Positions 1,489-38,467 of a DNA stretch of 64,000 nucleotides are shown one piece after another. Each line of letters opens with the position of its first letter. Positions within the stretch are counted from its first letter, which is position 1. Source of the DNA: an uncultured Myxococcales bacterium (GTDB taxonomy: Bacteria; Myxococcota_A; UBA9042; DTJE01). Below the pieces are notes generated by a model, which was not told where the DNA came from, made no database searches, and worked only from the letters and a program-made list of their open reading frames with translations. A program made the translations under genes and the position numbers. The DNA lies in the NCBI GenBank assembly GCA_937975765.1, contig CALJUR010000108.1, positions 1,574 through 65,573 on the forward strand, given 5' to 3'.

Positions 1489-1525
1489 CACGCCGCCGGC
1501 GGGGTCCTTCGGGTCCGTCCCGGTC

Positions 1526-2029
1526 CTACCGGCTGCCGCGCTGCACCATCAGGTCCAGATCCTCGCGCAGGCTCTGCAGATCCTCCTCGTGCTCGACTTC
1601 CTGTTCGAGGATCGTCAGCGCCAGGTTGTACGTCACCATGTCCTTGCCCTGGGTGAAGTCCATCAAGGCCTTGTAGGTGTCGATGGCGCACTGCTCGCCG
1701 GCGATGTTCTGGTCCAGCAGCACCGCGACGTACGGGTCCTCCGGGGCGTCGTACGCGCACGGGCTCTGCGCCAGCCACCCGGTGGGGGTCAGGACCGGCG
1801 TGCCGCCCAGCTGGATGATGCGGCCGGCCAGCAGCACCGCGTGGTTCATCTCCTCGGTGGCGTGCAGGGTCAGTTCGGCCGCCACGGCATCCTTCATCGG
1901 CCCCTTGATGACCCTCGCCCCCAGCCAGTACTGGTAGTGGGCCAGCCACTCGCTGGCATACGCCGCGTTCAGCCGCTTCAGCAGTTCGTCCACGTCGATC
2001 CCGACGATCTCCCTTCCGCGCGTTCCCAT
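1526..2029 (-). CDS. bacterioferritin/ferritin-like diiron protein (167 aa)
   Basis: Ferritin-like helices: YQYWLGARV in the N-terminal part and TEEMNHAVLLAGRIIQLGG as the EExxH iron-site helix. Start codon at 2027-2029 with GGGAGGA 5 nt upstream. The upstream 1526..3526 ORF extension is an artefact. Confidence 0.6.
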   Translation of the reverse strand: MGTRGREIVGIDVDELLKRLNAAYASEWLAHYQYWLGARVIKGPMKDAVAAELTLHATEEMNHAVLLAGRIIQLGGTPVLTPTGWLAQSPCAYDAPEDPYVAVLLDQNIAGEQCAIDTYKALMDFTQGKDMVTYNLALTILEQEVEHEEDLQSLREDLDLMVQRGSR

Positions 2030-2043
2030 GGCATCCTCCCGTT

Positions 2044-3477
2044 TCAGCGCCCCGTGGCCGCCTTCCCCTTCCGTCCCGTCTTCGGGTCGGACCCGTATCC
2101 TAGCGCCTTCCAGTCCATCCGGATCCCCCCGTCGTGGCAGTCGGCACATTTCAGCGCATTCTCCTTCGGCACCACGCCGTGGAAGATGCCCATCATCCGC
2201 TCGGTCTCGACCCAGCCGATGTCCTGCACCTCGTGACCGGTCCATTCCTTCGCACCCGCCCGGACCGCCGCCATCGCATCGCCGGTCTTGAATGCCATGC
2301 CCACCTTGATGGGCAGCAGCTTCCGGGTGGCCGGGTCGAAGGGCAGGCGAGCCGTGTGGCGCTTGAAGGGGAAGATCCGCGCCGCGGGGTCCTTCCGGCT
2401 GCCCTCGGGGGTGTAAAGACGGACCCGCTCCCCGGGCCCGGTGTCCGGCAGGGGCTCGTCCAGCAGCACGATGCGGCCCCGACCGTTCCACCACGCGTAG
2501 GCCGGGGTCACGTCCTTCGCGAAGGTGATGGCAGGCTCGAAGCGGCCCTCGCCCTCGACGGGCTCGGTGCGGCTCCAGTCGCGATGCATGCCGGTAGCGT
2601 CCTTCCTCGCGAAGGTCGGAACGTGGCAGGTGGTGCAGTCGATGCGCCGGGCGTGCCGATCCAGATCCTCCCGGGCATGGATGGCCCCCCGGTGGCACCC
2701 CTCGCAGGCGGGCCGCTTCCCCTCCGGACGGTCGCTGCCGGCCATCTGGGTCCCGCTGCCCAGCACCTGGTGCCGTTCGAACTTGTGGCACTGGGTGCAG
2801 CTCATTCCGCTGCCCAGGTGCACATCGAAGTCCCTGCGGGCGCGGAAGAGCCCCGTTTCCAGGTCGCCCCGCTTGAAGTTCAGGCCGCCGCCGGCCCCCA
2901 CGTGGCACCGCAGACACGCCGCGTTCCCCGGCGAGACGGGGTGCTGGGCGATGTTCCGCATGGCCTCGGGGTTCTGCAGGGCAACGGGCTCCCAGCGCAG
3001 GGAACCGTCCTCCCGCTTCACCACGTGGCGGCGGTAGTTGTCGCTGTGGCAGACCAGGCAGTCGATGTTCTCCAGCTGCTCGCGGCTCTCCTGGGCGGCG
3101 GGCTTCAGGCCCAGTCCCGCGTGGCATTTCGAACAGCCGTTGGCGATGACCTTCCCCTCGTCGTTCTTGAGGATGGCGATCCAGGAGATCGACGGGTTGG
3201 TGCAGAAGTCGTTGGTGGAGTTGATCTTCCCGATCTTCCGCCCCCCGGCGTTGGTCACGTCGGGGGCGTCGCCGCTCCACTGGTAGTGCAGGGATCGAAA
3301 GACGTCCCGGGCCTCGTCCTCGTGGCACTCCAGGCACGTCCGGGTCCCCTCGAACTTCGGCACGTACTCCCGGTGGGGGTCTTCCCACAGCACCCCCTCG
3401 CCCCCCGACTGGGCAAGGGCCAGGACAGGCAACCACACGATGGTCCAGGCAAGGACCGGCAGGATGCGGGGCTTCAT
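2044..3477 (-). CDS. octaheme c-type cytochrome (8 CXXCH; tetrathionate/nitrite-reductase-like octaheme family), secreted
   Basis: Signal peptide MKPRILPVLAWTIVWLPVLALAQS. Eight CXXCH motifs: CLECH, CSKCH, CLVCH, CLRCH, CTQCH, CEGCH, CTTCH, CADCH. AAGGAGG RBS. 477 aa. Confidence 0.8.
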   Translation of the reverse strand: MKPRILPVLAWTIVWLPVLALAQSGGEGVLWEDPHREYVPKFEGTRTCLECHEDEARDVFRSLHYQWSGDAPDVTNAGGRKIGKINSTNDFCTNPSISWIAILKNDEGKVIANGCSKCHAGLGLKPAAQESREQLENIDCLVCHSDNYRRHVVKREDGSLRWEPVALQNPEAMRNIAQHPVSPGNAACLRCHVGAGGGLNFKRGDLETGLFRARRDFDVHLGSGMSCTQCHKFERHQVLGSGTQMAGSDRPEGKRPACEGCHRGAIHAREDLDRHARRIDCTTCHVPTFARKDATGMHRDWSRTEPVEGEGRFEPAITFAKDVTPAYAWWNGRGRIVLLDEPLPDTGPGERVRLYTPEGSRKDPAARIFPFKRHTARLPFDPATRKLLPIKVGMAFKTGDAMAAVRAGAKEWTGHEVQDIGWVETERMMGIFHGVVPKENALKCADCHDGGIRMDWKALGYGSDPKTGRKGKAATGR

Positions 3478-3566
3478 GCGACCTCCTTCTTCGGACAACG
3501 GCGACCCGTGAGGTGCATGATAGCATATGCCCGGAATGCGGAGTCCCCCGTTGCGGGATCGGGGGG

Positions 3567-4961
3567 TCACTGCTGGGCGCGGGAGCGCCATGCCTCCAGG
3601 GCGGCCCGGTTGGATGCGCCGTCGGGGGAACTCCACGGGTCGAAGCCCTGGTCGGCGACCCCCAGCGCCGCCATCAGGGCGTGCAGCGCCTCGTCCCGGA
3701 ACAGGGGCGGCGTCGCCGGGTCGGACATCAGGCCCAGCAGCCGGGCCGTCCCGTCGGCCCGCGCCAGTTCCAGCAGGCGCTCGGCCGCGACGAACCGGAC
3801 CTCGACGTCGGTGGCGGCGTCGGCCAGCCGCGCCAGGTCCCCGGCCGATTCCACCCCCCGCATCGCCCGGCGCTTCTCCACCAGGTCCAGGCCCGACAGG
3901 CGCTCGGTCAGCCCTGCCAGGCCGCCGGCATCCCCGGATACGCCGGCCTCCCCGGGTGCGCCCCCCTCGACCGGCGCGGCATGCCCGCGGGCATGGGCTT
4001 CCGAATCCGCGGCCCGTTCGTGCTCGGGCCCCTGGGCCAGGGCCGGGACGCCCGCCATGAAGCGGCCCGCCCCGGCGAATGCCAGGCCCAGGACGACCAC
4101 GACGGCGGCGCCCGCCACCACGTGGCCCAGCGCGCGCAGCCTTTCGGGGGCGCGGATCACGTACACCGCCAGCGCCGCCAGCAGCAGGGCCAGGCCGTAG
4201 AAGGCCACGACCGTGGGCCCGCTGGGCAGGTCGCCCCAGTAGCTGAACGCCAGCCCGATCACCGAGACGGCGGTCCCGACGACCCATCCGATGGCCAGTT
4301 GCAGCCCCATCCGGTCCGTCAGCATCACGCCCAGGATGGCCGGGACCACCAGGAACACGAAGACCAGCAGGACGCCGGCCGTCTGGACCGAGTGGGTGAT
4401 GACCAGGCCGAACAGCAGGTAGAACAGGAAGTCCCACCATCGCACCCGCAGGCCCTGGCGGCGCGCCTCCTCCGGGTCCTCGGAGATCAGGCGGAACGGC
4501 TTGCGGAACAGGAAGTGCAGGGCCCCCACCACGGCGTATGCGGCCGCGGCCTTCCAGACGTCCTCGGCGGTCACCCACAGCAGCGAGCCCGTCGAGATGT
4601 TCTGGATGTGCTCGGCTCCGTGCGGAGCCCCGTACACCGCCAGGATCCCCACCGACGCCGCCAGCGCGTACGACAGGCCGATGACGGCCTCCTGGGGCAC
4701 CCGGTCCTTGCGCAGGCGGGTCAGCGAGAAGACCGCCGCCCCCAGGAACGTGAAGGCCAGCGAGAACAGGTAGGCGCCCGTCGAGTGGGGGTTCAGGCCG
4801 AACAGGAACGCCACCGTGGTGCCCAACGCCGCCACCTGGGCCAGGGCGAGGTCCACGAAGATCACCCGCCGCCGGATCACGTGGAGTCCCAGGTACGAGT
4901 GGATGCCCACCAGGACCAGGCACTCCAGGAACGGCAGCGCCATCAGGCTGACGGCGTTCAC
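3567..4961 (-). CDS. metal ABC transporter permease (ZnuB/MntB/TroD, ABC-3 family) fused to a ~190-aa C-terminal soluble helical extension
   Basis: Polytopic N-terminal 270 aa typical of ABC-3 permeases (LALAQVAALGTTVAF..., GLSYALAASVGIL). GTG start overlaps the binding-protein stop (GTGA). An alternative ATG at 4943 is possible. Confidence 0.7.
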   Translation of the reverse strand: MNAVSLMALPFLECLVLVGIHSYLGLHVIRRRVIFVDLALAQVAALGTTVAFLFGLNPHSTGAYLFSLAFTFLGAAVFSLTRLRKDRVPQEAVIGLSYALAASVGILAVYGAPHGAEHIQNISTGSLLWVTAEDVWKAAAAYAVVGALHFLFRKPFRLISEDPEEARRQGLRVRWWDFLFYLLFGLVITHSVQTAGVLLVFVFLVVPAILGVMLTDRMGLQLAIGWVVGTAVSVIGLAFSYWGDLPSGPTVVAFYGLALLLAALAVYVIRAPERLRALGHVVAGAAVVVVLGLAFAGAGRFMAGVPALAQGPEHERAADSEAHARGHAAPVEGGAPGEAGVSGDAGGLAGLTERLSGLDLVEKRRAMRGVESAGDLARLADAATDVEVRFVAAERLLELARADGTARLLGLMSDPATPPLFRDEALHALMAALGVADQGFDPWSSPDGASNRAALEAWRSRAQQ

Positions 4962-6040
4962 TGCGAAACCTCCTTCGCGGCCCGATCCGCCGCTGCGAAC
5001 CCGTCGGCCAGGTGGCGGATCCAGTAGTCCACCAGGGCGAAGTAGTCATCGACCCCCGGCACGCCGGCCACGGACATGGGAACGATGACCGGGGTCGCCC
5101 CGACGGCGGCCGCGATGTGGCGAACCTTGTCCTCGTCGAAGTAGTTGGCGGCCAGGATCACCGGGACGCGCCGCTCCTTCATCAGCCGGATCAGGTCCTC
5201 GACGTGCTTCGGCGAGGGCGGGATCCCGGGCTTGGGCTCGACCTCGCCCAGGACCTCGACGCCGAAGACCCGCGCGAAGTAGATCCAGTTCTTGTGGTAG
5301 GTGACCAGCGAGCGGCCCCGGAAGGCCAGCGCCTGCTTCATCCAGCCGCCCAGCAGGTCCAGCATCGGGCGCCCCTGCACCGTCCGCGACGACAGGAAGG
5401 AGACCAGGTTGCCCGACTCGGCCAGTCGCTCCAGGGTGTCGCTGCCCAGCAGCGGCAGCAGGTCCGGACCGAACATGCGGCGGTCGATCTCGGCGGCGAA
5501 GGCCCGGGCCCGCTCCCGGTAATCGGCGGCGTGCGCGGCGTCCACCTTCGACAGGCCGGTCGCCAGGTTCCGGGCAACGATCTTCATGTTCAGCGGGTTC
5601 GTGTGGATGTGGGGGTTGCCGTAGATGTGCACCCCCCCCTGCCCGCGGTCCTTGATCTCGGGAATCTCCAGCAGCCGTACCCCGGCCGACACGGACACGT
5701 ACCCCTCCTGGCCCTCCATCACCCTGGGATTGGCCGCCTTGTCCAGCACCGACGGCGCCCACATTTCCAGGTCCAGGCCGGTGGTCACGAACAGGTCCGC
5801 CCGGCTGACCCAGATGGCGAAACTGGGCTTGGGCTTCACGAAATGGGCGTCCTGGTCGCCCTCGCAGATGGCCTTCACGTCCACCCGGTCGCCCCCGACG
5901 GCCCGGGCCACGGCGGCGTAGTCGGTCAGGGTGGTCACGACCTGGATCCGGCGCCCCTCGGCGCGGGCGTCCCCGGGCCCCGCGGCCAGGAATCCGGCCA
6001 CGGCCAGCGCCGCGACCCCGATGACAGCGTGCATCCTCAT
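4958..6040 (-). CDS. metal (Zn/Mn) ABC transporter substrate-binding protein, ZnuA/TroA family
   Basis: Signal peptide MRMHAVIGVAALAVAGFLAAG. TroA-fold hallmarks (HIYGNPHIHTNP, VTYHKNWIYFARVFG, ANYFDEDKV). GGAGGGAG RBS. Confidence 0.8.
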   Translation of the reverse strand: MRMHAVIGVAALAVAGFLAAGPGDARAEGRRIQVVTTLTDYAAVARAVGGDRVDVKAICEGDQDAHFVKPKPSFAIWVSRADLFVTTGLDLEMWAPSVLDKAANPRVMEGQEGYVSVSAGVRLLEIPEIKDRGQGGVHIYGNPHIHTNPLNMKIVARNLATGLSKVDAAHAADYRERARAFAAEIDRRMFGPDLLPLLGSDTLERLAESGNLVSFLSSRTVQGRPMLDLLGGWMKQALAFRGRSLVTYHKNWIYFARVFGVEVLGEVEPKPGIPPSPKHVEDLIRLMKERRVPVILAANYFDEDKVRHIAAAVGATPVIVPMSVAGVPGVDDYFALVDYWIRHLADGFAAADRAAKEVSQ

Positions 6041-6089
6041 GGCTCCCTCCTTCGTGCGCGGCCGGGAGCGTCCCCGGCCCGCCCCGCGA

Positions 6090-7520
6090 TCAGTACCGGT
6101 CGTGCTTGTGCGGCCCGGCGGCGAACACCACCTGCAGCAGGACCCGGTGGTCCCGCGGCCTCAAGTCGCCGTCCAGCAGGTCGTACTCCAGGTGCAGGCG
6201 CACGAACTCGCTGGGCTTGTAGTTGACGTAGGGCGCCACCTGCCACAGGTAGTGGCCCTGGTTGTCGGTGTCGAAGGGCTGGGTCAGGTCGCCCTGGATG
6301 CCCAGCATCCACCCCTGCCACACCTTCACGTCCAGCGAGGTGTAGCCGCCCATCCAGTGGATCGGTGCCTTGTTCAGCACCTCCTTGTACCCGTAAAGGA
6401 ACTCGGTCCGCCAGGTGACGCCCGCGTAGTGCGATCGGTTCGCGGGCTCCCAGGACAGCGTCAGGTCGGCGCCCCCGAAGGCCGTGTAGCGCAGGGCCTG
6501 ATCGGCAGGGGTCGCGGCCGGCTTTGCCGTCACCTGGACCGGGTTGCCGTCCTTGTCGTAGAACTCGATCTTCTTCCCGGTCGAGTCGTACACGTCCATC
6601 ACCGCGGCCGTGGCGGTCCGGCCCCGGCCGTGGTTGAACCCCAGGACCCCGGTCAGGCCCAGGTCCAGGTAGGTGTCGCGGTTCAGGTCCCAGTAGTTGC
6701 GCAGGCGCAGCAGGAAGGTCGGGATGCTGAAGAAGCTGCCCGAGAAGGCCCGGGCGTTCTCGCCGTTGGTGACCTGCAGCGTGACGGTCTCCTCGTGGGC
6801 CCACAGCGGCGGCAGCAGGACGTCCAGGGCGACGCCGGTCTGGTTCAGCCCGCCGGCGCCGAAGGGCTCCTGCAGCATCAGCGGGAAGTCGAACTGGTCC
6901 AGCGCGTGCTTGTGCCACCGGTTGACCACGCCCAGCTGCTGCCGGAAGCGGCCGGCGGTCAGGTTCACGCGGGGCAGCACGCTGGTCCAGGTGATGTAGG
7001 CCTCCCCGAACGAGAAGCCCTCGGGGGACATCGAGACGGCCACCTTGAAGAACGAGAAGGGGTCCAGGTTGGCCTGCAGGTGGAGTCCCACCCCGCGGAA
7101 GAAGATCCCCGAGCGCGTCGCGCCGACGTAATCGGCGCCGCTGCGGGTCAGCGCCCGGGCGTACTCCTTCCCGTCGCGGTTCACGTACTGGGCATAGATG
7201 TCGCCCGTGATGCTCAACTCGGGGTTCAGGGCCTGCAGGGCCCGTTCGCCTCCCTGGAAGACCCGCGGGCCGGTGTCGCCCTGGGGGCCCTCCTGGCGGG
7301 CGGCCGCGGCGGCGGCCTGGCGAAGGTCCTCCAGTTCCCGGGCCTCCTTCCAGGCCTTCAGTTCGTCGATCTGCTGCTGCAGCGAACGCAGGACGTCGGT
7401 ATCCAGGGCCGGGGCCGCGGGGGCCGCCGGTGCGGACGGGGGATTCTGCTGGGCCAAGGCGGCGGAGGCCGCCAGCGTGGCGACGGCCAGGACCGTCGCG
7501 CGTGACAGGAACGCGTGCAT
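6090..7520 (-). CDS. outer-membrane beta-barrel / porin-like protein with N-terminal coiled coil
   Basis: Signal peptide MHAFLSRATVLAVATLAASAALAQQ. Alternating amphipathic strands and aromatic-rich segments. Sits directly upstream of znuA-like gene. GGGAGGTAG RBS. Confidence 0.5.
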   Translation of the reverse strand: MHAFLSRATVLAVATLAASAALAQQNPPSAPAAPAAPALDTDVLRSLQQQIDELKAWKEARELEDLRQAAAAAARQEGPQGDTGPRVFQGGERALQALNPELSITGDIYAQYVNRDGKEYARALTRSGADYVGATRSGIFFRGVGLHLQANLDPFSFFKVAVSMSPEGFSFGEAYITWTSVLPRVNLTAGRFRQQLGVVNRWHKHALDQFDFPLMLQEPFGAGGLNQTGVALDVLLPPLWAHEETVTLQVTNGENARAFSGSFFSIPTFLLRLRNYWDLNRDTYLDLGLTGVLGFNHGRGRTATAAVMDVYDSTGKKIEFYDKDGNPVQVTAKPAATPADQALRYTAFGGADLTLSWEPANRSHYAGVTWRTEFLYGYKEVLNKAPIHWMGGYTSLDVKVWQGWMLGIQGDLTQPFDTDNQGHYLWQVAPYVNYKPSEFVRLHLEYDLLDGDLRPRDHRVLLQVVFAAGPHKHDRY

Positions 7521-7605
7521 GTCGCTACCTCCCGGCAGGGATTCCTCGGGGGCCCGTGCCGGGTGCCCGGTCCTTCCGGCACCCGCGTCGCGAACCCGGA
7601 TCGTA

Positions 7606-8031
7606 TCAGGCAGGAACCGGCCGGGTGGGGGGCGAGGCCTTCGGAGCGAGGTGCAGCCCCGGAATGCCGGGCACGTCGAGGGAGCGGGGGAAGAACCGCG
7701 GCAGCAGGGCGACGCAACCCGCCACGATCAGCGGCGGCGGGGCCGTCACGACCTCGACCGGGGCCTGCGCGAAGGCCATGACCGGGCAGCGGTGGTGTTC
7801 GCCCCCCCGGGGGTCCGCGGGAACGCCGTCCGGTTCGCCGGGATGCCGGTGCCCCGCGGCGGGCGGGGGCCGGGCCGGGTCGTCGTCCCCCTCGAACGCG
7901 CCGTGCCGCGCGCAGTACCGGTGCGGGAAGACCGCCAGGTGGACGAAGGCCGAGACCTGGGACACCAGCAGGTTCGCGGCAAACGCGACCGCCAGCCAGC
8001 GCAGCGTCCTCGACCCGGAACGACCGCCCAC
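7606..8031 (-). CDS. possible small two-TM membrane protein (141 aa, GTG start); weak call
   Basis: GC3-rich frame with two hydrophobic helices (LRWLAVAFAANLLVSQVSAFVHLAVF; LIVAGCVALLPRFF). Lies just downstream (minus sense) of conserved-element copy 1. Start uncertain and no homology recognised. Confidence 0.2.
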   Translation of the reverse strand: MGGRSGSRTLRWLAVAFAANLLVSQVSAFVHLAVFPHRYCARHGAFEGDDDPARPPPAAGHRHPGEPDGVPADPRGGEHHRCPVMAFAQAPVEVVTAPPPLIVAGCVALLPRFFPRSLDVPGIPGLHLAPKASPPTRPVPA

Positions 8032-8044
8032 GTTCCCTCGCACC

Positions 8045-8094
8045 CCCGGGGGAATGGGGGAATATTGGGCAAATGCGCAGAATCCGTCAAGGAG
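8045..8094. promoter_or_regulatory. conserved ~50-nt non-coding element, copy 1 (CCCGGG-GAATGGGGGAAT-ATTGGGCAAATGCGCAGAATCCGTCAAGGAG)
   Basis: About 80% identical to 19359..19412, including the identical core TGGGCAAATGCRCAGAATCCGTCARGA. Intergenic. Confidence 0.35.
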
Positions 8095-8123
8095 AAAAGG
8101 CGGGTGCCCGCGGGCCGGACCGG

Positions 8124-11100
8124 TCACGTGGCCGTGGTGCCCGCAACGGCCAGCGTCCAGTTCTCGCAGGACGACCCGCTGACGAACCGCACCTCGATCT
8201 GGATCGTGAAACTGTCGTTGTCCAGCAGGCAGTCGTCGTTGCCGGTCACGGTGACCTGGTCCGTCGCGCCCTCGCCGTTGGTGGAGTGGGCCATCAGCGT
8301 GCCGCACGGCTGGTAGACGTACAGGTCGTAGTTGACGCCCGCCGGGACCGTCAGCGTGACCCGCGCGTGCAGGTCGGTGCAGCAGCCCGAGCACTCCTCG
8401 ATCGTGGCGCTGTACCAGTAGCCGCCGCGGCCGTTCCGGGTCGCCAGCGTGGACCAGGACGTGGACGGGCACAGGAAGCCGGACGTCATGTCGCCGCACT
8501 TCGAGCCCAGGTTCGTCGCGCTGCCGCACGCGTTGGCGTAGGTGGACAGGCTGGCCTCGCACCCGTTGACGGCGTTGCCGTCGCAGTTCGCCCAGCCGCT
8601 GTCGCACGCCCCCAGCACGCAGGTCCGCGTCGCGCAGGATTCGGCGGCGTGGTCGCGCGCGCACGAGGTGCTGCACGCGCCGCAATGCGCCAGCGTGTCC
8701 AGCGACTGCTCGCAGCCGTTGTTCACGTTGCCGTCGCAGGTGCCGTAGCCGGTGTTGCAGTTCGGGGTGCAGACGGACCCCACGCAGGCGTTCGTGCCGT
8801 TGACCTGCTGGCAGACCGTGCCGCACGCCCCGCAGTTGTCCGCATCGCTGGTCAGGTCGCGGCAGACGTTGCTGCAGCAGGCCCCGGTCGCGCACTCGGC
8901 GCCGCTGGTGCAGGCCTGCCCAGCGTCCTTGCGGCACGTGCCGCCGATGCAACTGTACCCGGTCTGGCAGTCCGACGGCTGGCTGCATGTCGTCCGGCAC
9001 AGGCCGGTCGCCGGGTTGCAGGCGTACCCGATGCATGCCTGCGATCCGCCGTCCGAGCAGGTGCCGGCGCCGTCGCAGGTGTCGGCCAGGTAGCTGGTGT
9101 TGCCCGTGCAGGAGGCCGCCTGGCAGGTGGTGCCCGCGTCGTACAGCGCGCACGACCGGGACCCGGAACACGCCCCGGTCCGGTCGCACGAGGACACCCC
9201 GTCCACCGGGCACTCGTTGTCCAGGTCCTGGCCCGCGGGCACCGGGTCGCACCAGCCGGCGCGTCCCGCCAGGTCGCAGGCCTCGCAGGTGCCGCCGCAG
9301 CGCGCCCGGCAGCAGACGCCGTCGGTGCAGAAGCCGGATGCGCACTCGGTGTCCGCCGAGCAGGCCACGCCGGCGGATCGCAGGCAGGCCGTCCCGACGC
9401 ACTCGTGATCCGCCGCGCAGTCCGCGTTGGCGCCGCAGGCGGCCAGGCAAAGGCCCGTGGCCGGCGAACAGACATACGGCGCGCAGGTCTTCGTTCCCGC
9501 GTCCAGGCACGACCCGCCACCGTCGCACAGGTCCGCCAGGATGGACGTCCCGGTGCCCAGGCAGGTCGCGGGGGCGCAGGTCGTGCCCACGGGGTACAGC
9601 GCGCAGGCGGACGCCCCCGAGCACATCCCGGTGCGGCCGCACGTCGAGGTCGGCTGGTCCGTGCACTCGTTGTCGTAGTCGCTGCCGGCCGGCACGGGCT
9701 CGCAGAAGCCCGCGGTGCCCGGCAGGTTGCAGCGCGCGCAGATCCCGTCGCACGCGGACTCGCAGCAGACGCCGTCGACGCAGAACCCGGTGGCGCACTC
9801 GGTTCCCGTCGAGCAGCCCTGGCCGGTCGACAGCAGGCAGGCACCGCCCACGCAGGTGCGGTTGGTGGTGCAGTCGCCGCTGCCGGTGCAGGTCGTGCGG
9901 CAGGCGCCCGTCGCCGCGTCGCACGTGTAGGGCTGGCAGTCCACGTTCGGCGAGTCCACGCACGTGCCGTTCCCGTCGCACGCGTCGGCCGGGTCCGACG
10001 ACACGCTGCTGGCGCAGACGGCCGCCGCGCAACCCGTGCCCTCCGGCAGCAGCGCGCAGGACCGCTGGCCCGAACACTCGCCCGTCCGGCCGCATGTCTT
10101 GATCGCGTCGGCGGGGCACTCGCCCGCGGGGTCCGTGCCCGCCGGCACCGGGTCGCAGAATCCCTCGCGACCCGCCTGGTTGCAGGACTCGCAGGTGCCG
10201 CTGCACCGCGTCCCGCAGCACGTCCCGTCCCAGCATTCGCCGCTGGCGCACTCGGTCCCCGAGGCGCAGGGCTGGCCCTCGTCCTTCTTGCAGGTGGTTC
10301 CGACGCACACGTACCCCGTCGTGCAGTCGTCGTCGATCGCACAGGTGGTGCGGCATGCCCCCGTCCCGGCGTCGCACCCGTACGACCCGCAGGGGACCGT
10401 CCGCGCGGCGAGGCAGGTCCCCAGCCCGTCGCACAGCGCGGCCAGGGCCATCGTCGCGTCGTCCACGCAGTACCCCGCGGCGCAGACCTTCCCGTCCGGG
10501 GCCAGCGCGCAGGACCGCAGGCCGCTGCACGCGCCCGTCGTGCCGCACGACAGGGCGCCGCTGTTCGCGCACTCCCCGTCCGGGTCCTCGCCGGACGGCA
10601 CCGCGGCGCAGCGCCCCTCCTGGCCGGCCAGCGCGCAGGACTCGCAGAGGCCGTGGCACCGTGCGTCGCAGCACACGCCGTCCGTGCAGAACCCGCGGGC
10701 GCACTCGGCGTCCGCGCCGCAGGGCTGGCCGTCGGCCTTCAGGCAGGCCGTGCCGGCGCATGCGTATCCCGCCTGGCAATCCGCGCTGGTGCCGCAGGTC
10801 GTCCGGCACCCCCCGGTCACCGGGTCGCAAAGGTACGGCAGGCACTGCACGATGCCCGCGTCGATGCACGCCCCGGCGCCGTCGCACGCGTCGACCGGAT
10901 ACGACGCGTACAGCGAGGCGCACGCCCGGACCGAGCACGGGGTGCCCTGCCCGAACAGCCGGCAGCCTCCCTGCCCGTCGCACGTGCCCTCCGTGCCGCA
11001 CGTCGAGGCCTCCCGGTTCGGGCACTCGGCGTCGGGGTCGGTCTGGTCCGGCATCCACGTGCACGTGCCCTCGCTGCCTCCCAGGTCGCACGCCTCGCAC

Positions 11101-13439
11101 AGCCCGTCGCACGCCCGGTCGCAGCAGCGCCCGTCCACGCACAGCAGCGTGGCGCACTCCATCCCGTCCGCGCACGAGGCGCCCTCGACCTTCCGGCAGG
11201 CCCCCTGCGAGCACCGCGTGCCGGCCTGGCACTGGTCGTCCTGCACGCAGGCCGTCAGGCAGGTGCCGGTCGTGGTGTCGCAGACGTACGGGTGGCAGGC
11301 GGTGGTGCCGCCGTCGATGCACGCCCCCTTCCCGTCGCACTCGTCGGTGTTGGCGGAGGTCCCCGCGTCCAGGCACTCGGCCGGGTGGCACGTGGACCCG
11401 ACGGCCCACAGCGAGCAGGACCGGAAGCCCGAACAAGTCCCGGTCAGCCCGCAGCCCTCCGCACCCGAGGCCTCGCACTCGTCGCCCGGGTCCTGCCCCT
11501 CCGGCACGGCCAGGCACTCGCCGACGGCGCCCTCCAGGTCGCACACCTCGCAGGTCCCGTCGCAGCGCGACCCGCAGCACACGCCGTCGGTGCAGAAGCC
11601 GGACGCGCACTCGGCGTCCGCGCTGCACCCCTGGCCCTCGTCCCGCAGGCAGTACCCGTCGGCGCAGGCGAAGCCGGGCCCGCAGTCCCGGTCGAAGAAG
11701 CACGACTGCCGGCACAGGCCGGTCGCGGCGTCGCACGTGAACGGGGCGCAGTCGATCGTCCCCCGGTCCAGGCAGGCGCCCAGGCCGTCGCAGGTGGACG
11801 AGGCGTGCGCCACCGTCGCCGCGTCGCACGCGGAAGGCGCGCAGACCGTCCCCGCGGGCCACAGCGTGCAGGCGGACAGCCCCGAGCACTCGCCGGTCGT
11901 GCCGCACGTCGCCGGGTCGGCAGCCGCGCATTCCGCGTCCGGGTCGGTGCCGACAGGCAGCGGCGTGCAGGTCCCCTTCGTCTGGGCCAGGTCGCACCGC
12001 TCGCACGTGCCGTCGCAGCGGGAATCGCAGCAGACACCGTCGACGCACAGGCCCCGGACGCACTCGTCGTCCCCGCCGCACGGCTGGCCGGGGACCTTAC
12101 GGCACACGCCATCGTCGCACGTCCAGGGGGCCTGGCAGTCCTCCGGCCCGGTGCAGGACGCCAGGCACCCCTTCTGCGCCGTCGAGCACACCGTCGGGAA
12201 GCACTCGGCCAGCGTGTCCTCGTCGGTGGTGCCGTCGCAGTCGTCGTCCACGCCGTTGCACCGCTCGGTGGCCGTGGGCTTCACCGCGCCGTCGCCGTCG
12301 TCGCAATCGCCGCCCGTCGTCACGTCGTAGGGCGCCTCGCCCTGGCACAGGCACTTCGAGTCGCCGTCCACGCCGTAGCGATCCCGGTCCTCGTCCTTCA
12401 GGAAGTTCGTGCAGCCCGCGGCACCCTCCTCGTCCACCTCGCGGTCGCAGTCCTCGTCCAGCCCGTTGCCGCACACCTCCGGGGCCGCGGCCGTGCCCTC
12501 GCACAGCGGCTTGCCCCCCACGCACCGGGACGTGCCGGGGCACTCGCCATACGCGTTGACGATCGTGCAGGCCTGGCCGTCCAGCCCCTGGTCGGTGGCG
12601 CCGTCGCAGTCGTTGTCCGCCCCGTCGCAGGTCTCGGCGACCGGCGTCGCCGCGGTGCACGGCGCGTCGCAGGTGCGCTCGGCCGTGCAGGTCCAGTCGC
12701 CCACGGTCACCCGGCAGACCGTCAGCGCCCCCTCGTCCCGGTACCGGTCGGTGCACGGGCACGGTTCGCCTTCCGCCGGCCGGCACTGCTTCGCCGACAC
12801 GCGCCCGGAGGTCGCGTCGACGCAGTCGTACCCGTCCGGGCAGTCCCCGGCGACCTCGCACCCCGACCCGCAGAAGCTCCCCTCGGGACCCTGCTCGAGG
12901 CACAGGAACCGCCGGTTGCCCCCTCCGAGGATCTGGCAGTCCGCCGCAGTCCGGCAAGGGCGGCACAGGTTCGCGTGGCGGTCGATGCACCCGAAGACCG
13001 GCTCGTCGCCCACGCTGCTGATCTGCTCGCAGCCCCAGCCCGGCGGGCAGTCGATGCCCAGGCCGCACAGCTTCGAGCAGACCGATCCATCCCGGGTCAT
13101 CGTGCAGAAGCCGGACAGGCAGTCCGCGTTGTCCGAACAGGCACAGCCGAAGCCGTGGCAGTCCGCCGCGGAGTCGGCCTCGGCGTCCAGCGGTGCATCG
13201 CCGTCCGGCAGCGTGTCCCCGGGGGGCAGTTCGCCGCCCGGATCCGCGGGGATGCCGTCCTCCTCGGCCAGGTCGCACCGCTCGCAGCCGGGGTCGGCCA
13301 GGTCGGGCAACTCGCCGGTCCCGGGGTCCGCCACGGGGGTGTCGGGCTGGCCGGCGCCGTCGTCCAGCGCCACCTTCCCGTTCCCCTCGCACGCCGCCAT
13401 CGCCAGCACCAGGCCCAGCGCCAGGATCCCGCGTCGCAT
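8124..13439 (-). CDS. giant (1771 aa) cysteine-rich repeat lipoprotein; N-terminal MopE-like CxGxDDDCDG motifs followed by ~16 tandem ~100-aa Cys-rich modules (myxobacterial Cys-rich repeat type)
   Basis: Lipobox in MRRGILALGLVLAMAAC. Reiterated module ...CxxGxCxxGxCCxxxCxGxCExCxLxGxxGxCxxVPxGxDPxxEC.... GGGGAGG RBS. The opposite-strand 1491-aa and 1830-aa ORFs are artefacts. Confidence 0.85.
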   Translation of the reverse strand: MRRGILALGLVLAMAACEGNGKVALDDGAGQPDTPVADPGTGELPDLADPGCERCDLAEEDGIPADPGGELPPGDTLPDGDAPLDAEADSAADCHGFGCACSDNADCLSGFCTMTRDGSVCSKLCGLGIDCPPGWGCEQISSVGDEPVFGCIDRHANLCRPCRTAADCQILGGGNRRFLCLEQGPEGSFCGSGCEVAGDCPDGYDCVDATSGRVSAKQCRPAEGEPCPCTDRYRDEGALTVCRVTVGDWTCTAERTCDAPCTAATPVAETCDGADNDCDGATDQGLDGQACTIVNAYGECPGTSRCVGGKPLCEGTAAAPEVCGNGLDEDCDREVDEEGAAGCTNFLKDEDRDRYGVDGDSKCLCQGEAPYDVTTGGDCDDGDGAVKPTATERCNGVDDDCDGTTDEDTLAECFPTVCSTAQKGCLASCTGPEDCQAPWTCDDGVCRKVPGQPCGGDDECVRGLCVDGVCCDSRCDGTCERCDLAQTKGTCTPLPVGTDPDAECAAADPATCGTTGECSGLSACTLWPAGTVCAPSACDAATVAHASSTCDGLGACLDRGTIDCAPFTCDAATGLCRQSCFFDRDCGPGFACADGYCLRDEGQGCSADAECASGFCTDGVCCGSRCDGTCEVCDLEGAVGECLAVPEGQDPGDECEASGAEGCGLTGTCSGFRSCSLWAVGSTCHPAECLDAGTSANTDECDGKGACIDGGTTACHPYVCDTTTGTCLTACVQDDQCQAGTRCSQGACRKVEGASCADGMECATLLCVDGRCCDRACDGLCEACDLGGSEGTCTWMPDQTDPDAECPNREASTCGTEGTCDGQGGCRLFGQGTPCSVRACASLYASYPVDACDGAGACIDAGIVQCLPYLCDPVTGGCRTTCGTSADCQAGYACAGTACLKADGQPCGADAECARGFCTDGVCCDARCHGLCESCALAGQEGRCAAVPSGEDPDGECANSGALSCGTTGACSGLRSCALAPDGKVCAAGYCVDDATMALAALCDGLGTCLAARTVPCGSYGCDAGTGACRTTCAIDDDCTTGYVCVGTTCKKDEGQPCASGTECASGECWDGTCCGTRCSGTCESCNQAGREGFCDPVPAGTDPAGECPADAIKTCGRTGECSGQRSCALLPEGTGCAAAVCASSVSSDPADACDGNGTCVDSPNVDCQPYTCDAATGACRTTCTGSGDCTTNRTCVGGACLLSTGQGCSTGTECATGFCVDGVCCESACDGICARCNLPGTAGFCEPVPAGSDYDNECTDQPTSTCGRTGMCSGASACALYPVGTTCAPATCLGTGTSILADLCDGGGSCLDAGTKTCAPYVCSPATGLCLAACGANADCAADHECVGTACLRSAGVACSADTECASGFCTDGVCCRARCGGTCEACDLAGRAGWCDPVPAGQDLDNECPVDGVSSCDRTGACSGSRSCALYDAGTTCQAASCTGNTSYLADTCDGAGTCSDGGSQACIGYACNPATGLCRTTCSQPSDCQTGYSCIGGTCRKDAGQACTSGAECATGACCSNVCRDLTSDADNCGACGTVCQQVNGTNACVGSVCTPNCNTGYGTCDGNVNNGCEQSLDTLAHCGACSTSCARDHAAESCATRTCVLGACDSGWANCDGNAVNGCEASLSTYANACGSATNLGSKCGDMTSGFLCPSTSWSTLATRNGRGGYWYSATIEECSGCCTDLHARVTLTVPAGVNYDLYVYQPCGTLMAHSTNGEGATDQVTVTGNDDCLLDNDSFTIQIEVRFVSGSSCENWTLAVAGTTAT

Positions 13440-13593
13440 CGGATGCCTCCCCGCACCCCGGGCCGGGGCGCGTCCTGGACGGTCAACACTGCCGCATCGA
13501 GGCCATTCTACCGGCGAGGGGGCGAAAGTTCGACCGGGATCGCGCCGGGGTGCAGGCGCACGTAAGCACGGCGACGTCCGTCGGCCGGGGGGT

Positions 13594-14973: not shown

Positions 14974-15275
14974 GCGGCGGTTCTACCACGAGGCCGGGCC
15001 GGGGGGCCAGGGCGGGCGAGGTCGGGATGTCGATGCCGCGGCGCCGTGCGGCGGCGACGGCACCGTGGAGATCCCGGACACCGGATGCGCCGACCACATG
15101 GCCACCTGCGCGGCCTCCCACTCCGACGCGGTCCAGCCGTTCCGAGGCGCGTCCGGTCGCGTTTTACGCCGAAGGTCCTGGCCCGCCTGCACGCTCGGGA
15201 ACTCGCACCCACCCCGGGGGGAGGGCAGCATCGGGGGCACAATGTTCCTGCCGGTCGTCGGTGCCTCGCGGGCGA

Positions 15276-15914
15276 TCACCGGACGGCCGCGATCTCCACG
15301 AGCACACTGCGCAGCTTGCCGAAGCTCCGGGAGGTGTTCCGAGCGGGCTCCATGCGTGCCGCGATTGCCCGGGCAGCTTCGATCTTGCGCAATCCGCCCC
15401 TGAAGTAGCCAGCCCTTTGCAGTTCGCGCTCGAATGCCTCCCAGGTGCCGCCCGCAACGGCATCGGGGTCGCGGAACCCCGCGCGCGAAGGGATCGTTGC
15501 CGGAACGTTCGGATAGGCGGCCCGAACCGCCGCCCAGTCCCCGAAATACCAGGCCTCAAGTTCCTCGATGGCAAGGCGGTTGACCACGGTCCATCTGGAG
15601 TTGGAACCGGGAGATCGGGGCACAAGGCCGACGTCCTTCACCATCCTGTCCAGTCGCTGCTTCAGCGCGACGCACTGGTCGTTGTCGCGATCGACCACGA
15701 CCACCACGCGAACGTGATCGCGGAACCAAGGGTCGCTCCGCATCCGGTTGGCATACCCCTGCATGCGCTGGGGCAGGCGCTCCAGGAGTTCGTCCTTGCA
15801 CTGGAAGGGGAAGACCTCGTGGGGCAGGTTTCCCAGGATCCTGGGCAGCAACAGGCGCAGCGCCGCCTCCATGGAGGGTTCTTCGACCAGGACCTCGACA
15901 TGATCGACGCTCAT
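15276..15914 (-). CDS. DUF4276-family protein (212 aa), putative TOPRIM-like effector partner of the upstream ATPase
   Basis: Length and pattern of DUF4276: N-terminal [23 protein letters not shown], central [11 protein letters not shown] (DxD), [13 protein letters not shown] 15912-15914 overlaps the ATPase TGA (ATGA). The track's longer start is in-frame upstream read-through. Confidence 0.65.
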
Positions 15915-17149
15915 CGCCCCTTCCCCGTCCCGGAAGGGGCTCCCAGACGCACCAGCGGATCGCCGACGCCGAATCGGCCCTCCATCCACAAATGGCCCAG
16001 CGTGGCGCCCGCCTCCACATGCTCCCGCACACCAGCGATGTCTCCTGCCTTAAGCGTCTGCGAGTATCCTTCCGGGTCTCGCCACAGGACCCGGACCTCG
16101 TCCGGCCGCAGAGCGTTCAGGAAGAACGGCGAGTGCGTCGTGACCAGCATCTGCGTCCGCTCGCTGGCCGCGCGACACTCCTCGGCCAGTTCCGGCAGCA
16201 GTCTCGGGTGCAGGAAGTTCTCGGGTTCCTCGATTCCGATGAATGGCGGAGGATTGGGGTCGTACAGCAGCACCAGGTATGCCAGCATCTTCAGCGTGCC
16301 GTCGGAAGCGAACCGGGCCAGGACCGGATTGTTGAACGGCGCGTCCTTGATCTGGAGAAGCAGCCGGCCGTCCGGCATGGTTTCGGACAGGACCTTCTCG
16401 ATCCGGGGCACCCGTCGACGAAGCACCTCGAAAATCCGCTCCAGGCGTTCCGGATGGCGTTCCGCGAGGAACTGGATCACGTTCGCAAGGTTGTCCCCGG
16501 TCTTCGCCAGGCGCTCCTGGGGTCCCGCCTCGGGCTGGCCGCGCATGCTCTCGGCAGCAAGGTAGGACACGTACCATCCCGTGATGAAATCCCGTAATGC
16601 CGCCACGCGGGGGTGTTCTGCGAACTGGCCAAGGGCATTCACTGCCAGCAGGTCCGGGGACTTCAGAGGGACCTCCGCGCGGTGGTCCTGCTCGTCGGGC
16701 AGTTCCCCGCTGACCGCCCTCCCCTGGCCCTCGCGATAGTCCAGGAACTTGAACGGCCGGCCGTGGGCACCCCGCTTCCACTGCAACCACTCCTCGACGA
16801 CGACAGGCGTCCCTGTACCGCGCTCGTCGATGGCGAGGTGGTACGTGATCAGGGGGAACCCGTGTTCGCGATACTTCAACTCGATCGATACGGGGCCTGT
16901 CGATCCCCGGCTCCGCAGTTCCTTCGCGCGTCCCCGCTTGTCCCAGGCGCGCCGAAGTCCCATTTCGAAGCACTCGGCCATGAATGCGAACACGTCAAAG
17001 ACCGTGGACTTGCCGCCGCCATTCGGGCCCAGGAGGACCGTCATCGGCGTCATCGTCTTGAACTCGACCTCGCGCAGGGCGCGGAAGTTCCGGACCTTCA
17101 GGTACTCGATCCGCGCCAGCGCCCGCGGTCGATCCGTGGCCGGTTTCAT
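15911..17149 (-). CDS. AAA_21-type ABC ATPase (OLD/AbiEii-like N-terminal ATPase), 412 aa
   Basis: Walker [13 protein letters not shown] signature, Walker B and D-loop [23 protein letters not shown]-loop TTHSP. GGAGGTGG RBS 5 nt before ATG 17149. Confidence 0.85.
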
Positions 17150-17609
17150 GGAACCACCTCCGGGAATCTCATCGAGTCATCGGCCTCCCACTCGTCCGAT
17201 GCAAGTCTCGGAACCGGCGAACAGCGCATCCACACGAACACCTCGGCGCTGCCTGGCCGCGTTGCGTCCGGGTTCAATGGCGAGTCTTACTTCAGAACGA
17301 TGACAGCGGTTTGATGATGACGGGTCACTGGGTGGGCCCCGATGGGCGCAGACAAAAGGGTTCGGCCCGACGGGTTCGAAGGCGGCGGCGACGCCCTGTC
17401 CACGGTCTGCCGGCCTGGCCGGAGCAATCGTCGCCACGGCTGCGGGAACCGGGACATGGTGTCACCACGGACCCCGGGATCGCGGCCACTCGCCGGAAGT
17501 TTCAGGTGCCCCTGAGCCATCACGCCGCAAGAGGTGATCCGGCAGGACGCGCGCTACGGGGCGGCCTCCGCGGGATGGTACGATGCGGCATCCCTGCATG
17601 GAGCCCGGC

Positions 17610-32665: not shown

Positions 32666-32810
32666 GCCCCACCTCGCCCTGGAACGGTACGAACCCCGGC
32701 CGGAAGCATACCATCGGCCGGCCCTGCCCCGACGGCCCCGTGAAGCCCCGGACCCGCCACCCCGGCCGCTCGTGTGCTATCTTCCTCCAGGAACCAGGAG
32801 GTTCCCCGGA

Positions 32811-34442
32811 TTGCGCAAGCCTCACCTGCGGTTCTGGTCCATCCCGCTGGTCGTCCTGGCCCTGGCCGGGCCGCTGGCGATCACGACGCATGCCGAGCAG
32901 GAGCGCCAGTACGAGTCGCTGCGGGCCCTGTTCGAGGCCCACGCCCGCTTCGTCGGGAACCTGGTCCGGGAGGCCTCCCAGGAGGCCGCCTGGTCCACCA
33001 GCCAGGCCTACGAGATGTCCGCCGACAACGCCGCCCGGTGCCTGGGGTTGCTGGGGATTCCCGGCGCCGTCGAGGATTGCGCCGCGATCCGGTCCCGGAT
33101 CCCCGACCTGGTCGTGTGGGCGGCCGTCGATGGCACCGGGGTTCGCGGTTGCACGGGTCCCCTGGCCGCCCCGGAACGGGTCGCGTTCGTGGAAGGCGTC
33201 CTGGCCGCGCCCGACCCGGGTTTCGTGGACGACGACCGCACCCGGGCGGCCGGGGTGTTCTGCGTGGCGGATCCGTCGCCCGGCGTCGCCACGGTCCTGT
33301 GCCTGGACCGCCGCCCGCTGGACGAGACCCGGCGGGAGGTGGGCCTGGGCCCCCTGCTGGCCGGCCTGAAGGACCCGGGCCTGGACTACGTCGTGGTGCA
33401 GGACGCCGGCGGGCTGCTGGCGGCCTCCCCGGATCCCGGGCAGGTCTCGACCTTCGCGGAGGACCCGCTGCTGGAACAGGTCCTTTCGGGCCCCGACGAC
33501 GGCGTGCAGGGACGGCTGCTGGTCCGGGACGGGCGCACCACCTACGAAATCGTCGGGCCGCTGGACCTGGCGGACGGCACGCGGGCGCTGGTTCGGGCGG
33601 CGCTGGACGCAGGCGAACTGGATCGCCTGCGGGACCGGATCGCGCGCCGCATGACGCTGATGGCGGGGGTACTGGGGACCGCGGTGCTGCTGGGCGCAGC
33701 GCTGGCGTGGGTGCTGTCGTTCGCGTCGCGACGGAGGCGGGAGTTCGAGGCTGCCCTGCAGCAGCGCGAGGAGGAGTCCCGCCACTGGCAGTCCCTGGGG
33801 CAGATGGCGGCGACGGTCGCCCACGAAGTCCGCAACCCCCTGAACACGATCGGGATGGCCCTGCAGCGGCTGGCCCGGGAGGTCCGGGTGACCCCGGAGG
33901 ACGAGGCCGGCTTCCGGGAGCTGCTGGAACTGTCCGGCGGCGCCGCCGACCGGGTCGAACGGGTGGTGGGGGACTTCCTGGAACTGGGCAAGCCGCTGGA
34001 TCTGGACCTGCGGCGGCACCCGGCCGGGCCGCTGGTGTCGGAGACCCTGGCCCCGCTGGCGATGCGCGCCCGGTCCGAGTCCCGGAACCTGGTGGTCGAG
34101 TGCGATTGCCCCGGCGAGGTTCGCGTGGACCGGCGGCGGTTCCAGCAGGTGGTCGCGAACCTGGTGGCAAACGCGCTGGATGCCGTCGGGCCGGGCGGGA
34201 CCGTCCGGGTGTTCGCGTCCTGCGGCGACGAGGGCTTCCGGATGACCGTCGAGGACGACGGGCCGGGGATGGACGCGGCCACGCTGGACCGGGTGCAGGC
34301 CCCGTTCGTCACCACCAAGGCGCACGGGACTGGCCTGGGGCTGCCGCTGGCGAAGCGGCTGGTGGAGGCGCACGGCGGGCGGCTGGTCCTGGAATCGGCG
34401 CCGGGACGCGGCACGCGGGCCACCGTGACGCTGCCCCGGTGA
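32811..34442 (+). CDS. sensor histidine kinase (two TM, HisKA + HATPase_c)
   Basis: TTG start 9 nt after AGGAGG. H-box ATVAHEVRNPL. N, G1 and G2 boxes (VANLVANALDA, EDDGPGM, GTGLGL). Confidence 0.75.
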   Translation: MRKPHLRFWSIPLVVLALAGPLAITTHAEQERQYESLRALFEAHARFVGNLVREASQEAAWSTSQAYEMSADNAARCLGLLGIPGAVEDCAAIRSRIPDLVVWAAVDGTGVRGCTGPLAAPERVAFVEGVLAAPDPGFVDDDRTRAAGVFCVADPSPGVATVLCLDRRPLDETRREVGLGPLLAGLKDPGLDYVVVQDAGGLLAASPDPGQVSTFAEDPLLEQVLSGPDDGVQGRLLVRDGRTTYEIVGPLDLADGTRALVRAALDAGELDRLRDRIARRMTLMAGVLGTAVLLGAALAWVLSFASRRRREFEAALQQREEESRHWQSLGQMAATVAHEVRNPLNTIGMALQRLAREVRVTPEDEAGFRELLELSGGAADRVERVVGDFLELGKPLDLDLRRHPAGPLVSETLAPLAMRARSESRNLVVECDCPGEVRVDRRRFQQVVANLVANALDAVGPGGTVRVFASCGDEGFRMTVEDDGPGMDAATLDRVQAPFVTTKAHGTGLGLPLAKRLVEAHGGRLVLESAPGRGTRATVTLPR

Positions 34443-34488
34443 GTCACGCAGCCCGGCCCCGACCCGGGCCGGCGGAAGGAAGGACGCG

Positions 34489-37993: not shown

Positions 37994-38092
37994 CCGGGAA
38001 CCCGCGCCCGGCTCCTTCCCGAAACCCGCCCCGCGTCTCCCCGGGAGCGCCCCCGGAGGTATCATGGAGTCGAGAAGTCCAGGAGGTGCCCC

Positions 38093-38293
38093 ATGGAAAC
38101 GGCCATCGCGTCGCAGCCCGCCCTCACCCGGGACGAGTGGACGCAGATCGCCCTCCTGCTGAAGGAGGAACTGGACGGCCTGCAGACCGAGATCCACCAC
38201 ACCGATTCGCAGGCCTACCGGGACGACCTGCAGGCGCGCCGCCAGACGCTGGCCGGCACGCTGCAGAAGGTGGAGGCGGCGCTGAAGGGCTGA
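38093..38293 (+). CDS. small helical protein (66 aa), unknown function
   Basis: CAGGAGG RBS 7 nt upstream. GC3-rich frame. Confidence 0.4.
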   Translation: METAIASQPALTRDEWTQIALLLKEELDGLQTEIHHTDSQAYRDDLQARRQTLAGTLQKVEAALKG

Positions 38294-38467
38294 TGCCCGG
38301 GCACGCCGGCCGGGAGGCACCCCCGCCCCGGGCACGGGTTTCCCCGGCCCCCCGTCGCACGCCCCGGGCCCTGGATCCGCGACTTCCCCCCGCCCACCCG
38401 CGGGATTCCACGCCCCCGCGCCTTCGTGGTACGGTACCGCGTTCCCGTTCCCTCACCGGAGGCAGGC

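Follow-up and report, generated by a model that had tools for sequence, protein, structure and literature searches.

The PARIS system pairs an ATP-binding cassette (ABC) ATPase, AriA, with a TOPRIM nuclease, AriB, in a Class 4 OLD-like arrangement. MADS3-4 and AbiL have been named in the PARIS paper as further systems that combine an ABC ATPase with a TOPRIM protein, and in its tree of ABC-ATPase defence systems DUF4276 is one of the annotated domains (PMC11464382); DUF4276 has also been assigned to the TOPRIM superfamily and Mad4 described as its homologue (PMC12065111). Payne et al. described an ABC ATPase that is embedded in Hma systems together with a TOPRIM-like partner, with a conserved metal-binding site on alignment to the OLD protein of Burkholderia (bioRxiv 10.1101/2024.01.29.577857), and it is listed in PADLOC-DB as HEC-01, for Hma-embedded candidate 01. 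Other surveys still carry HEC-01 as an unvalidated candidate (PMC12853721). Here we analyse a two-gene operon at 15276-17149 in a 64,000-nucleotide stretch of DNA from an uncultured Myxococcales bacterium (contig CALJUR010000108.1; the whole stretch is called the window, and coordinates are counted from its first letter). The operon is an intact two-gene HEC-01 module, an already catalogued candidate anti-phage system. A sequence-only reading of the window had proposed a defence pair of this kind and suggested that ATPase-DUF4276 pairs appear in defence surveys, as HEC-01 does (10.1101/2024.01.29.577857); the inference, while correct, had already been published and the system is not novel.

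The pair is an intact HEC-01 module

The upstream gene, HEC-01A, encodes a 412-residue ABC-type (SMC/Rad50/OLD-like) ATPase (15911-17149, minus strand), and the downstream gene, HEC-01B, encodes a 212-residue DUF4276 protein with an OLD-like TOPRIM and a helical domain, a predicted metal-dependent nuclease (15276-15914, minus strand). The two are adjacent on the same strand and share four nucleotides, an ATGA stop/start overlap (15911-15914, minus strand) in which the TGA of the ATPase gene (15911-15913) lies on the ATG of the DUF4276 gene (15912-15914), consistent with translational coupling. Both open reading frames (ORFs) are full length where the sequence-only reading had placed them, with the lengths and overlap it gave. 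The 412- and 212-residue products also appear in the public gene calls of four independent assemblies, and because their sequence matches the window at 100% identity where the pair joins its neighbouring genes on either side, the arrangement is no assembly chimera. A longer ORF with a GTG start (15276-15989, 237 residues) was ruled out for the second gene, as all 55 aligned homologues begin at the ATG at 15914 and the public gene calls concur.

The PADLOC models for HEC-01 matched both proteins over nearly their whole length: the ATPase matched HEC-01A (PDLC04182) with an E value of 3.2e-161 and 534.8 bits over profile positions 2-404 of 406, and its partner matched HEC-01B (PDLC04202) with 4.7e-77 and 256.7 bits over positions 2-201 of 204. 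In Pfam the ATPase matched AAA_21 (9.3e-30), well above the gathering cut-off, and the second protein matched DUF4276 (PF14103) with 6e-29 and 102.1 bits against a gathering cut-off of 30.2, the profile check that the earlier assignment of this protein had called for. Because the Pfam matches lie well above their cut-offs and the PADLOC matches cover nearly whole profiles, chance is excluded as the source of the assignment. The ATPase gave weaker PADLOC matches to AriA, AbiLi (1.3e-25), mad3 (3e-23), PtuA and NsnB (4.5e-15), together with a sub-threshold NCBIfam match to MAD3 (8e-34, 117.4 bits against a cut-off of 420). In PADLOC the DUF4276 protein had no match outside the HEC-01 models, and in Pfam none outside DUF4276.

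The ATPase carries the motifs of an ABC head domain, and all those quoted earlier for both proteins are present. In an alignment of 53 homologues, G41, P42, N43, G44, G46, K47 and T49 of the Walker A motif or P-loop GPNGGGKST (residues 41-49, with Lys47; 17003-17029, minus strand) are invariant. So are all four residues of SDGT (S282, D283, G284 and T285; residues 282-285, 16295-16306, minus strand), a putative ABC signature judging by its place ahead of Walker B. The Walker B segment with its following acidic residues, FIGIEEPE (residues 303-310; 16220-16243, minus strand), has invariant E307, E308, P309 and E310, and the H-loop TTHSP (residues 337-341; 16127-16141, minus strand) has invariant T337, H339, S340 and P341. 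The predicted model shows an ABC head fold nearest to those of SMC, Rad50, PtuA, GajA and AriA, and resembles RecF heads too. Pfam, PADLOC and fold comparison thus agree with the earlier placement of the ATPase in the AAA_21/ABC type related to AriA, PtuA, GajA and OLD. The AbiEii in the Pfam name of AAA_21 we take to be a misnomer.

Fold and putative active site of the DUF4276 protein

The AlphaFold2 (AF2) model of the DUF4276 protein is of high confidence and shows a TOPRIM fold, a four-stranded parallel sheet between helices, joined to a helical domain in the manner of OLD. Structural comparison placed it closest to the C-terminal region of Burkholderia pseudomallei OLD (score 11.3, 159 residues aligned), followed by PH0156 (10.6), AriB (8.2), Thermus OLD (8.2), GajA (7.7) and the TOPRIM domain of retron Eco2 (6.7). 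The sole convincing Foldseek match of the model was to the same OLD fragment (probability 1.0, TM 0.47-0.49). The earlier suggestion that DUF4276 is a divergent TOPRIM domain therefore agrees with the predicted fold, and with an alignment in which its glutamate, DxD and ExE positions are invariant or nearly so.

In the alignment of 56 sequences the invariant residues are E16, K40, D75, R76, D77, R113, E117, E118, E120 and K177. Along the chain, a glutamate and a second one four residues on come after strand 1, the DxD after strand 3 and the ExE after strand 4, and the helical domain supplies a lysine. For Burkholderia OLD, the two-metal site is formed by E400, E404, D455/D457, T506/E508 and K562 (PMC6755086). 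By their order, the glutamates of VEEPSME (E11, E12 and E16; 15867-15887, minus strand), which follow the strand at residues 5-10, probably correspond to E400/E404; VEEPS spans residues 10-14, E16 is invariant and E11/E12 are conserved in at least 90% of the sequences. The DxD motif, DRD (residues 75-77; 15684-15692, minus strand), stands at the end of strand 3, which spans residues 68-75 in the model. The invariant glutamates of EELE (residues 117-120; 15555-15566, minus strand) would form a probable second metal site, paralleling T506/E508 by their position after strand 4 (residues 110-115). K177 in the helical domain (15384-15386, minus strand) is a candidate counterpart of the catalytic lysine K562, and the correspondence of the whole site to Burkholderia OLD, drawn from order and conservation, is likewise putative. 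An invariant glycine after strand 2 is a trait of canonical TOPRIM domains (PMC6755086); it was not found in the DUF4276 alignment, which has a conserved Q38-C39-K40 there instead.

Comparison with related systems

The pair is like described HEC-01 in that both models match nearly full length, an ABC ATPase gene precedes one for a TOPRIM-like protein, and relatives are likewise embedded in defence operons. It differs in setting, as this copy lies outside Hma, restriction-modification (R-M), BREX and DISARM systems and is solitary in a core region. Embedding in another defence system is how HEC-01 was discovered, and the models do not demand it.

From PARIS the pair differs in its nuclease, since AriB is a DUF4435-type protein of about 300 residues whereas the protein here is a DUF4276 protein of 212 residues with no match to the AriB model, and the AriA matches of its ATPase are partial and far weaker than the match to HEC-01A. 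PARIS is also often carried by phages and satellites, whereas phage records lack the HEC-01 family, and the trigger and tRNA target of PARIS may or may not extend to that family. In OLD proteins of Class 1 and 2 (P2 Old, Burkholderia OLD, Thermus OLD and Gabija GajA), the ATPase and TOPRIM domains are fused, whereas here they are two separate ORFs; Class 2 OLD and Gabija have a gene for a UvrD/PcrA-like helicase immediately downstream, where this locus has a short-chain fatty acid (SCFA) transporter gene instead, and the OLD family has no detectable sequence similarity to the DUF4276 protein here.

Mad3-Mad4 of MADS is similar in that Mad4 is a DUF4276 homologue (PMC12065111) and the ATPase here matches mad3 and MAD3, but the MAD3 match is well below its cut-off, there is no mad4 match, and no methyltransferase or other mad gene lies nearby. 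NsnC variants of Menshen whose C-terminal domain is DUF4276, and pairs of the RloA/RloB type from Type I R-M systems, likewise place a predicted DUF4276/RloB TOPRIM nuclease beside an AAA_15/21 ABC ATPase (PMC12065111), but in Menshen DUF4276 is fused to NsnC in a three-gene system, unlike the stand-alone protein of the two-gene system here. For AbiL (AbiLi/AbiLii), the AbiLi match of the ATPase is far weaker than that to HEC-01A and the second protein has no AbiLii match.

Conservation and distribution of the pair

A scan of one genome per species gave at least 540 loci, of which the best 80 were retained for locus counts. Their hosts are Myxococcota, Acidobacteriota, Planctomycetota, several proteobacterial classes, Chloroflexota, SAR324, Latescibacterota, Verrucomicrobiota, Bacteroidota and others, with a single archaeal locus, in Methanosarcina sp. 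DH2. An ATPase homologue lies directly upstream of the DUF4276 gene in 77 of the 80, and the other three end at a contig edge. Because stop and start overlap in 66 of 72 evaluable loci (by 4 nt in 45, 1 nt in 18 and 11 nt in 3), translational coupling is a conserved trait of the pair. An exhaustive profile search yielded 1689 representatives of the family after clustering at 50%, and the best 150 of these are all stand-alone proteins of 120-342 residues, with no ATPase fusion among them. Over ten phyla, and Methanosarcina as well, have DUF4276 homologues of 50-77% identity. In 75 of 75 loci the ATPase is the better conserved of the two proteins (mean identity 71% vs 59%), and in a large protein collection the top 120 ATPase clusters, drawn from across phyla, all share at least 79% identity with the query. 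Among plasmid records, one of 72,556, a Meiothermus plasmid, carries the pair.

The Methanosarcina sp. DH2 locus (L045:8802-10606) was noted separately: its ATPase is 78% identical to the one here and its pair has a guanine-plus-cytosine (GC) content of 54% against 41% in the flanks, which looks like a recent transfer between bacteria and archaea.

Horizontal acquisition

The pair reached this core chromosomal region through horizontal transfer. Its GC content is 0.657 against a window mean of 0.722, and GC at third codon positions (GC3) is 0.82 and 0.81 in the two genes against a host mean of 0.94 (standard deviation 0.04, 30 host genes), about three standard deviations lower; the kilobase 16001-17000 is the lowest in GC of the window. 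Across 62 loci the GC content of the pair tends towards about 58% whatever that of the host (41-77%), and it is below that of the flanks in 54 of the 62 and above it in the low-GC Methanosarcina. The closest relatives by their transporter (85-88% identical in protein and 82-84% in gene DNA) have no pair beside the orthologous transporter gene, and each has different genes upstream of it. Foreign GC3 and this absence bear out the earlier view that the pair was acquired horizontally. Its distribution is patchy, with horizontal spread, and not that of a syntenic housekeeping locus.

That reading had also described an insertion. The pair is indeed absent at the locus in the closest relatives, but there is no target duplication, integrase or tRNA, nor any transposase or convincing flanking direct or inverted repeats around the pair, and the upstream and downstream spacers showed no repeat pairing. 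Because gene order around the transporter is rearranged in every relative, a clean empty site or exact insertion point cannot be defined.

Some observations concern the transporter gene itself. In the window a block of about 12 kb (1489-13593), with ZnuA and ABC-3 genes and genes for a 476-residue protein and a 1771-residue Cys-rich MopE-motif protein, parts it from a BNR_2 gene (25-1488). Because the transporter and BNR_2 genes are direct neighbours in three relatives (L090, L092 and L094), the BNR_2 side of the transporter also is rearranged or carries an insertion. Two of these relatives encode an identical transporter protein (L090:8563-10001 and L092:7702-9140) and differ immediately upstream of it, one having a DUF6036 gene and the other an HTH_26 gene with a 75-residue ORF; downstream of the transporter, L090 has MazG-like, HNH_2 and HipA_C genes. 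The surroundings of the transporter gene seem to be a strain-variable spot.

Association with restriction operons elsewhere

About a quarter of the homologous loci sit in Type I R-M, BREX, DISARM or Dpd operons. Type I R-M genes surround the pair in 17 of the 80 species loci, and close homologues, at 67-74% identity, have hsdS on one side and hsdR on the other within Type I R-M operons (L005-L009). The immediate upstream neighbour encodes HsdS in 11 and HsdM in 8 of 68 loci. Downstream, among 79 loci, it encodes HsdR in seven and PglZ in two, and DpdE, DrmD, a Type II methyltransferase and three PADLOC candidates occur once each. All other immediate neighbours are unrelated metabolic or regulatory genes.

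Two arrangements within R-M operons were recorded besides. The Meiothermus taiwanensis plasmid pMtWR-220 (L095:1-11653) has three modules between hsdM and hsdR of one Type I R-M operon: a DUF262 protein, a DarTG-like pair of a DUF4433 and a macro-domain protein, and the AAA ATPase-DUF4276 pair, whose DUF4276 stop overlaps the hsdR start. On two metagenome contigs (L008:7584-12613 and L009:7584-12613) the pair lies between a 335-residue ORF with HSDR_N only and a 399-residue ORF with only the C-terminal domains of HsdR, so that HsdR looks split, its motor domain seemingly missing.

Proposed mechanism and alternatives

We think it rather probable, by analogy with the systems above, that the HEC-01 module works as a split OLD-like or PARIS-like immune system. 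In such a system the ATPase and the DUF4276 nuclease would form a complex in which the nuclease is held inactive, and a signal of invasion by phage or foreign DNA would alter the nucleotide state or the assembly of the ATPase. The putative two-metal TOPRIM site (E12/E16, D75xD77, E118/E120 and K177) would then be released or activated, and the nuclease might cut DNA, as OLD and GajA do, or tRNA, as AriB does. Cleavage would halt phage replication, probably at a cost to host growth. Complex formation, trigger, substrate and outcome are all proposed here by analogy. In favour of the model stand the full-length family matches, the OLD-like nuclease model and the ABC head of the ATPase with their invariant residues, the conserved coupled operon, the defence operons around many relatives, the horizontal spread and the one positive phage test of a HEC-01 representative.

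Several results weigh against this model. A HEC-01 representative tested by Payne et al. in E. coli K-12 gave no protection from any phage of their panel (10.1101/2024.01.29.577857), whereas in a cold-seep study one representative protected E. coli B from at least one of T4, T5 and T7 (10.1101/2024.09.26.614923), so that the phage tests of the family, one negative and one positive, are contradictory. The strong conservation of the ATPase, the presumed sensor, is unexpected for a protein in an arms race with variable phage proteins. No phage record carries the pair, and the family is all but missing from phage and plasmid records. At this locus the pair is solitary among transport and core genes, with no hsd or restriction gene and no other defence gene in the 64-kb window. 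Confidence is low for the central insert of the ATPase model. Finally, because a profile search of the DUF4276 protein against PDB sequences, with E values up to 10, matched no solved TOPRIM protein, the kinship is visible at the level of the fold only, and the apparent catalytic equivalence draws on the modelled fold and residue order.

The frequent position of the pair between hsdS and hsdR or in BREX, DISARM and Dpd operons raises the alternative that it is an accessory of restriction which needs a Type I R-M or like system, for example as a back-up when restriction is inhibited; the copy here would then be an orphan, inactive or reliant on an R-M system elsewhere in the genome. PARIS, the closest split system in which an ABC ATPase is paired with a TOPRIM protein, is triggered by anti-restriction proteins (PMC11464382; discussion of 10.1101/2024.01.29.577857), and a conserved trigger would accord with how highly conserved the ATPase is. 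However, about three quarters of the 80 loci, this copy included, have unrelated neighbours, so the pair persists where no restriction system adjoins it, the two genes here are intact and keep every catalytic residue, and PADLOC treats HEC-01 as a self-contained two-gene system. We regard a strict dependence on restriction as unlikely.

Because the ATPase is strongly conserved and the pair so often lies in restriction operons, there is also room for a different proposal, to which we give a small chance: that HEC-01 guards restriction-type immunity, the ATPase sensing a conserved cue rather than a variable phage protein and the nuclease perhaps cutting a target other than DNA, such as tRNA in the manner of AriB, with solitary copies guarding R-M systems elsewhere in the genome. 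The cue might be an anti-restriction protein that mimics DNA, restriction complexes that have stalled, or some particular DNA end. If this were true, HEC-01 would be a second PARIS-like branch that arose independently and uses another TOPRIM family.

An orphan, selfish or silent copy is also conceivable in view of the negative phage test and of the solitary context here. The pair could be a selfish addiction or toxin-antitoxin-like cassette, in which loss of the ATPase unleashes the nuclease with no anti-phage benefit. Such a cassette might well look like this compact, tightly coupled two-gene operon, with its wide horizontal spread and incomplete GC amelioration, and might fail a phage test as one representative did. 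We find it quite improbable, as addiction modules thrive on plasmids and phages, where the pair occurs in the one plasmid record and no phage genome, purifying selection acts strongly along the whole of both proteins, and one HEC-01 representative did protect from phage (10.1101/2024.09.26.614923).

The window copy might instead be a decaying or silent remnant of a past transfer with no current function. It stands alone, and it has not adopted the codon usage of the host. No sigma-70 consensus was recognised in the divergent intergenic region upstream (17150-17609, GC 0.672), which holds the presumed promoter, in a scan that has little power for an organism of 72% GC, and there is no terminator-like hairpin in the downstream spacer (14974-15275). 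Against this, both ORFs are full length relative to the profiles, with no frameshift and every invariant residue kept, the ATGA coupling is retained, and a strong Shine-Dalgarno sequence, GGAGGTGG, stands 5 nt 5' of the ATPase ATG; a remnant is highly improbable. A housekeeping DNA repair or recombination pair, comparable to RecF (an ABC ATPase) and RecR, which carries a TOPRIM domain, is hardly credible, for although the ATPase model resembles Rad50, SMC and RecF heads, the distribution is patchy with the locus empty of the pair in the closest relatives, near-identical copies cross phyla and domains, the codon usage of the pair here is foreign, copies are embedded in restriction operons, and the nuclease resembles OLD and AriB, not RecR.

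As a further copy of a widespread, catalogued candidate defence module, the pair in this window matters little in itself. What may be useful to the study of HEC-01 are the conserved coupled operon, the stand-alone nuclease, an ATPase more conserved than its nuclease, the quarter of loci in defence operons, the near-absence from phages and plasmids, and the transfer between bacteria and archaea.

Surroundings of the pair in the window

The pair is flanked by the SCFA transporter gene on its downstream side and by a TPR lipoprotein gene, functionally unrelated to it as the sequence-only reading had said. Farther out are genes for ZnuA, a giant Cys-rich MopE-motif protein, a flavin mononucleotide (FMN) oxidoreductase and outer-membrane proteins, and the window also encodes parA, parB, secG and pgk. 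A second defence-like ATPase (55873-56820), with PADLOC matches to mad3, mad8 and AriA, was examined and rejected, being an ordinary ABC-transporter ATP-binding protein beside an ABC-2 permease. At 55873-57623 this ABC_tran ORF is followed by the overlapping permease ORF, and the matches are mad3 at 8.9e-29, mad8 at 3.7e-13 and AriA at 2e-12, which shows that generic ABC ATPases can yield false defence matches. Because the neighbours of the pair are transport and core genes and the only other PADLOC matches come from this transporter ATPase, there is no defence island here.

The spacers of 302 bp and 460 bp on either side of the pair exist as first described, the former becoming 338 bp with the public start of the transporter, which lies 36 bp further in. 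They are not atypical as had been thought, since other gaps of about 560-770 bp occur in the window by GC3-based gene calls. The claim of lowered GC proved right for the pair and for the upstream spacer but not for the one that separates the pair from the SCFA transporter gene downstream, a spacer whose GC of 0.752 is host-like. When compared with 95 loci by blastn and tblastx, the spacers gave only short GC-rich noise, with no hsd remnants and no conserved non-coding DNA, and Rfam gave no match.

By the same GC3-based calling, stretches of 1.1-1.8 kb at 32666-34488, 36873-38425 and 41283-42436 carry no confident gene. The 1771-residue Cys-rich gene (8124-13439, minus strand) is overlapped by ORFs of up to 1830 residues in other frames or on the opposite strand (7606-13565); these look like typical artefacts of DNA of 75% GC, only the frame with GC3 of 0.96 appearing to be coding.

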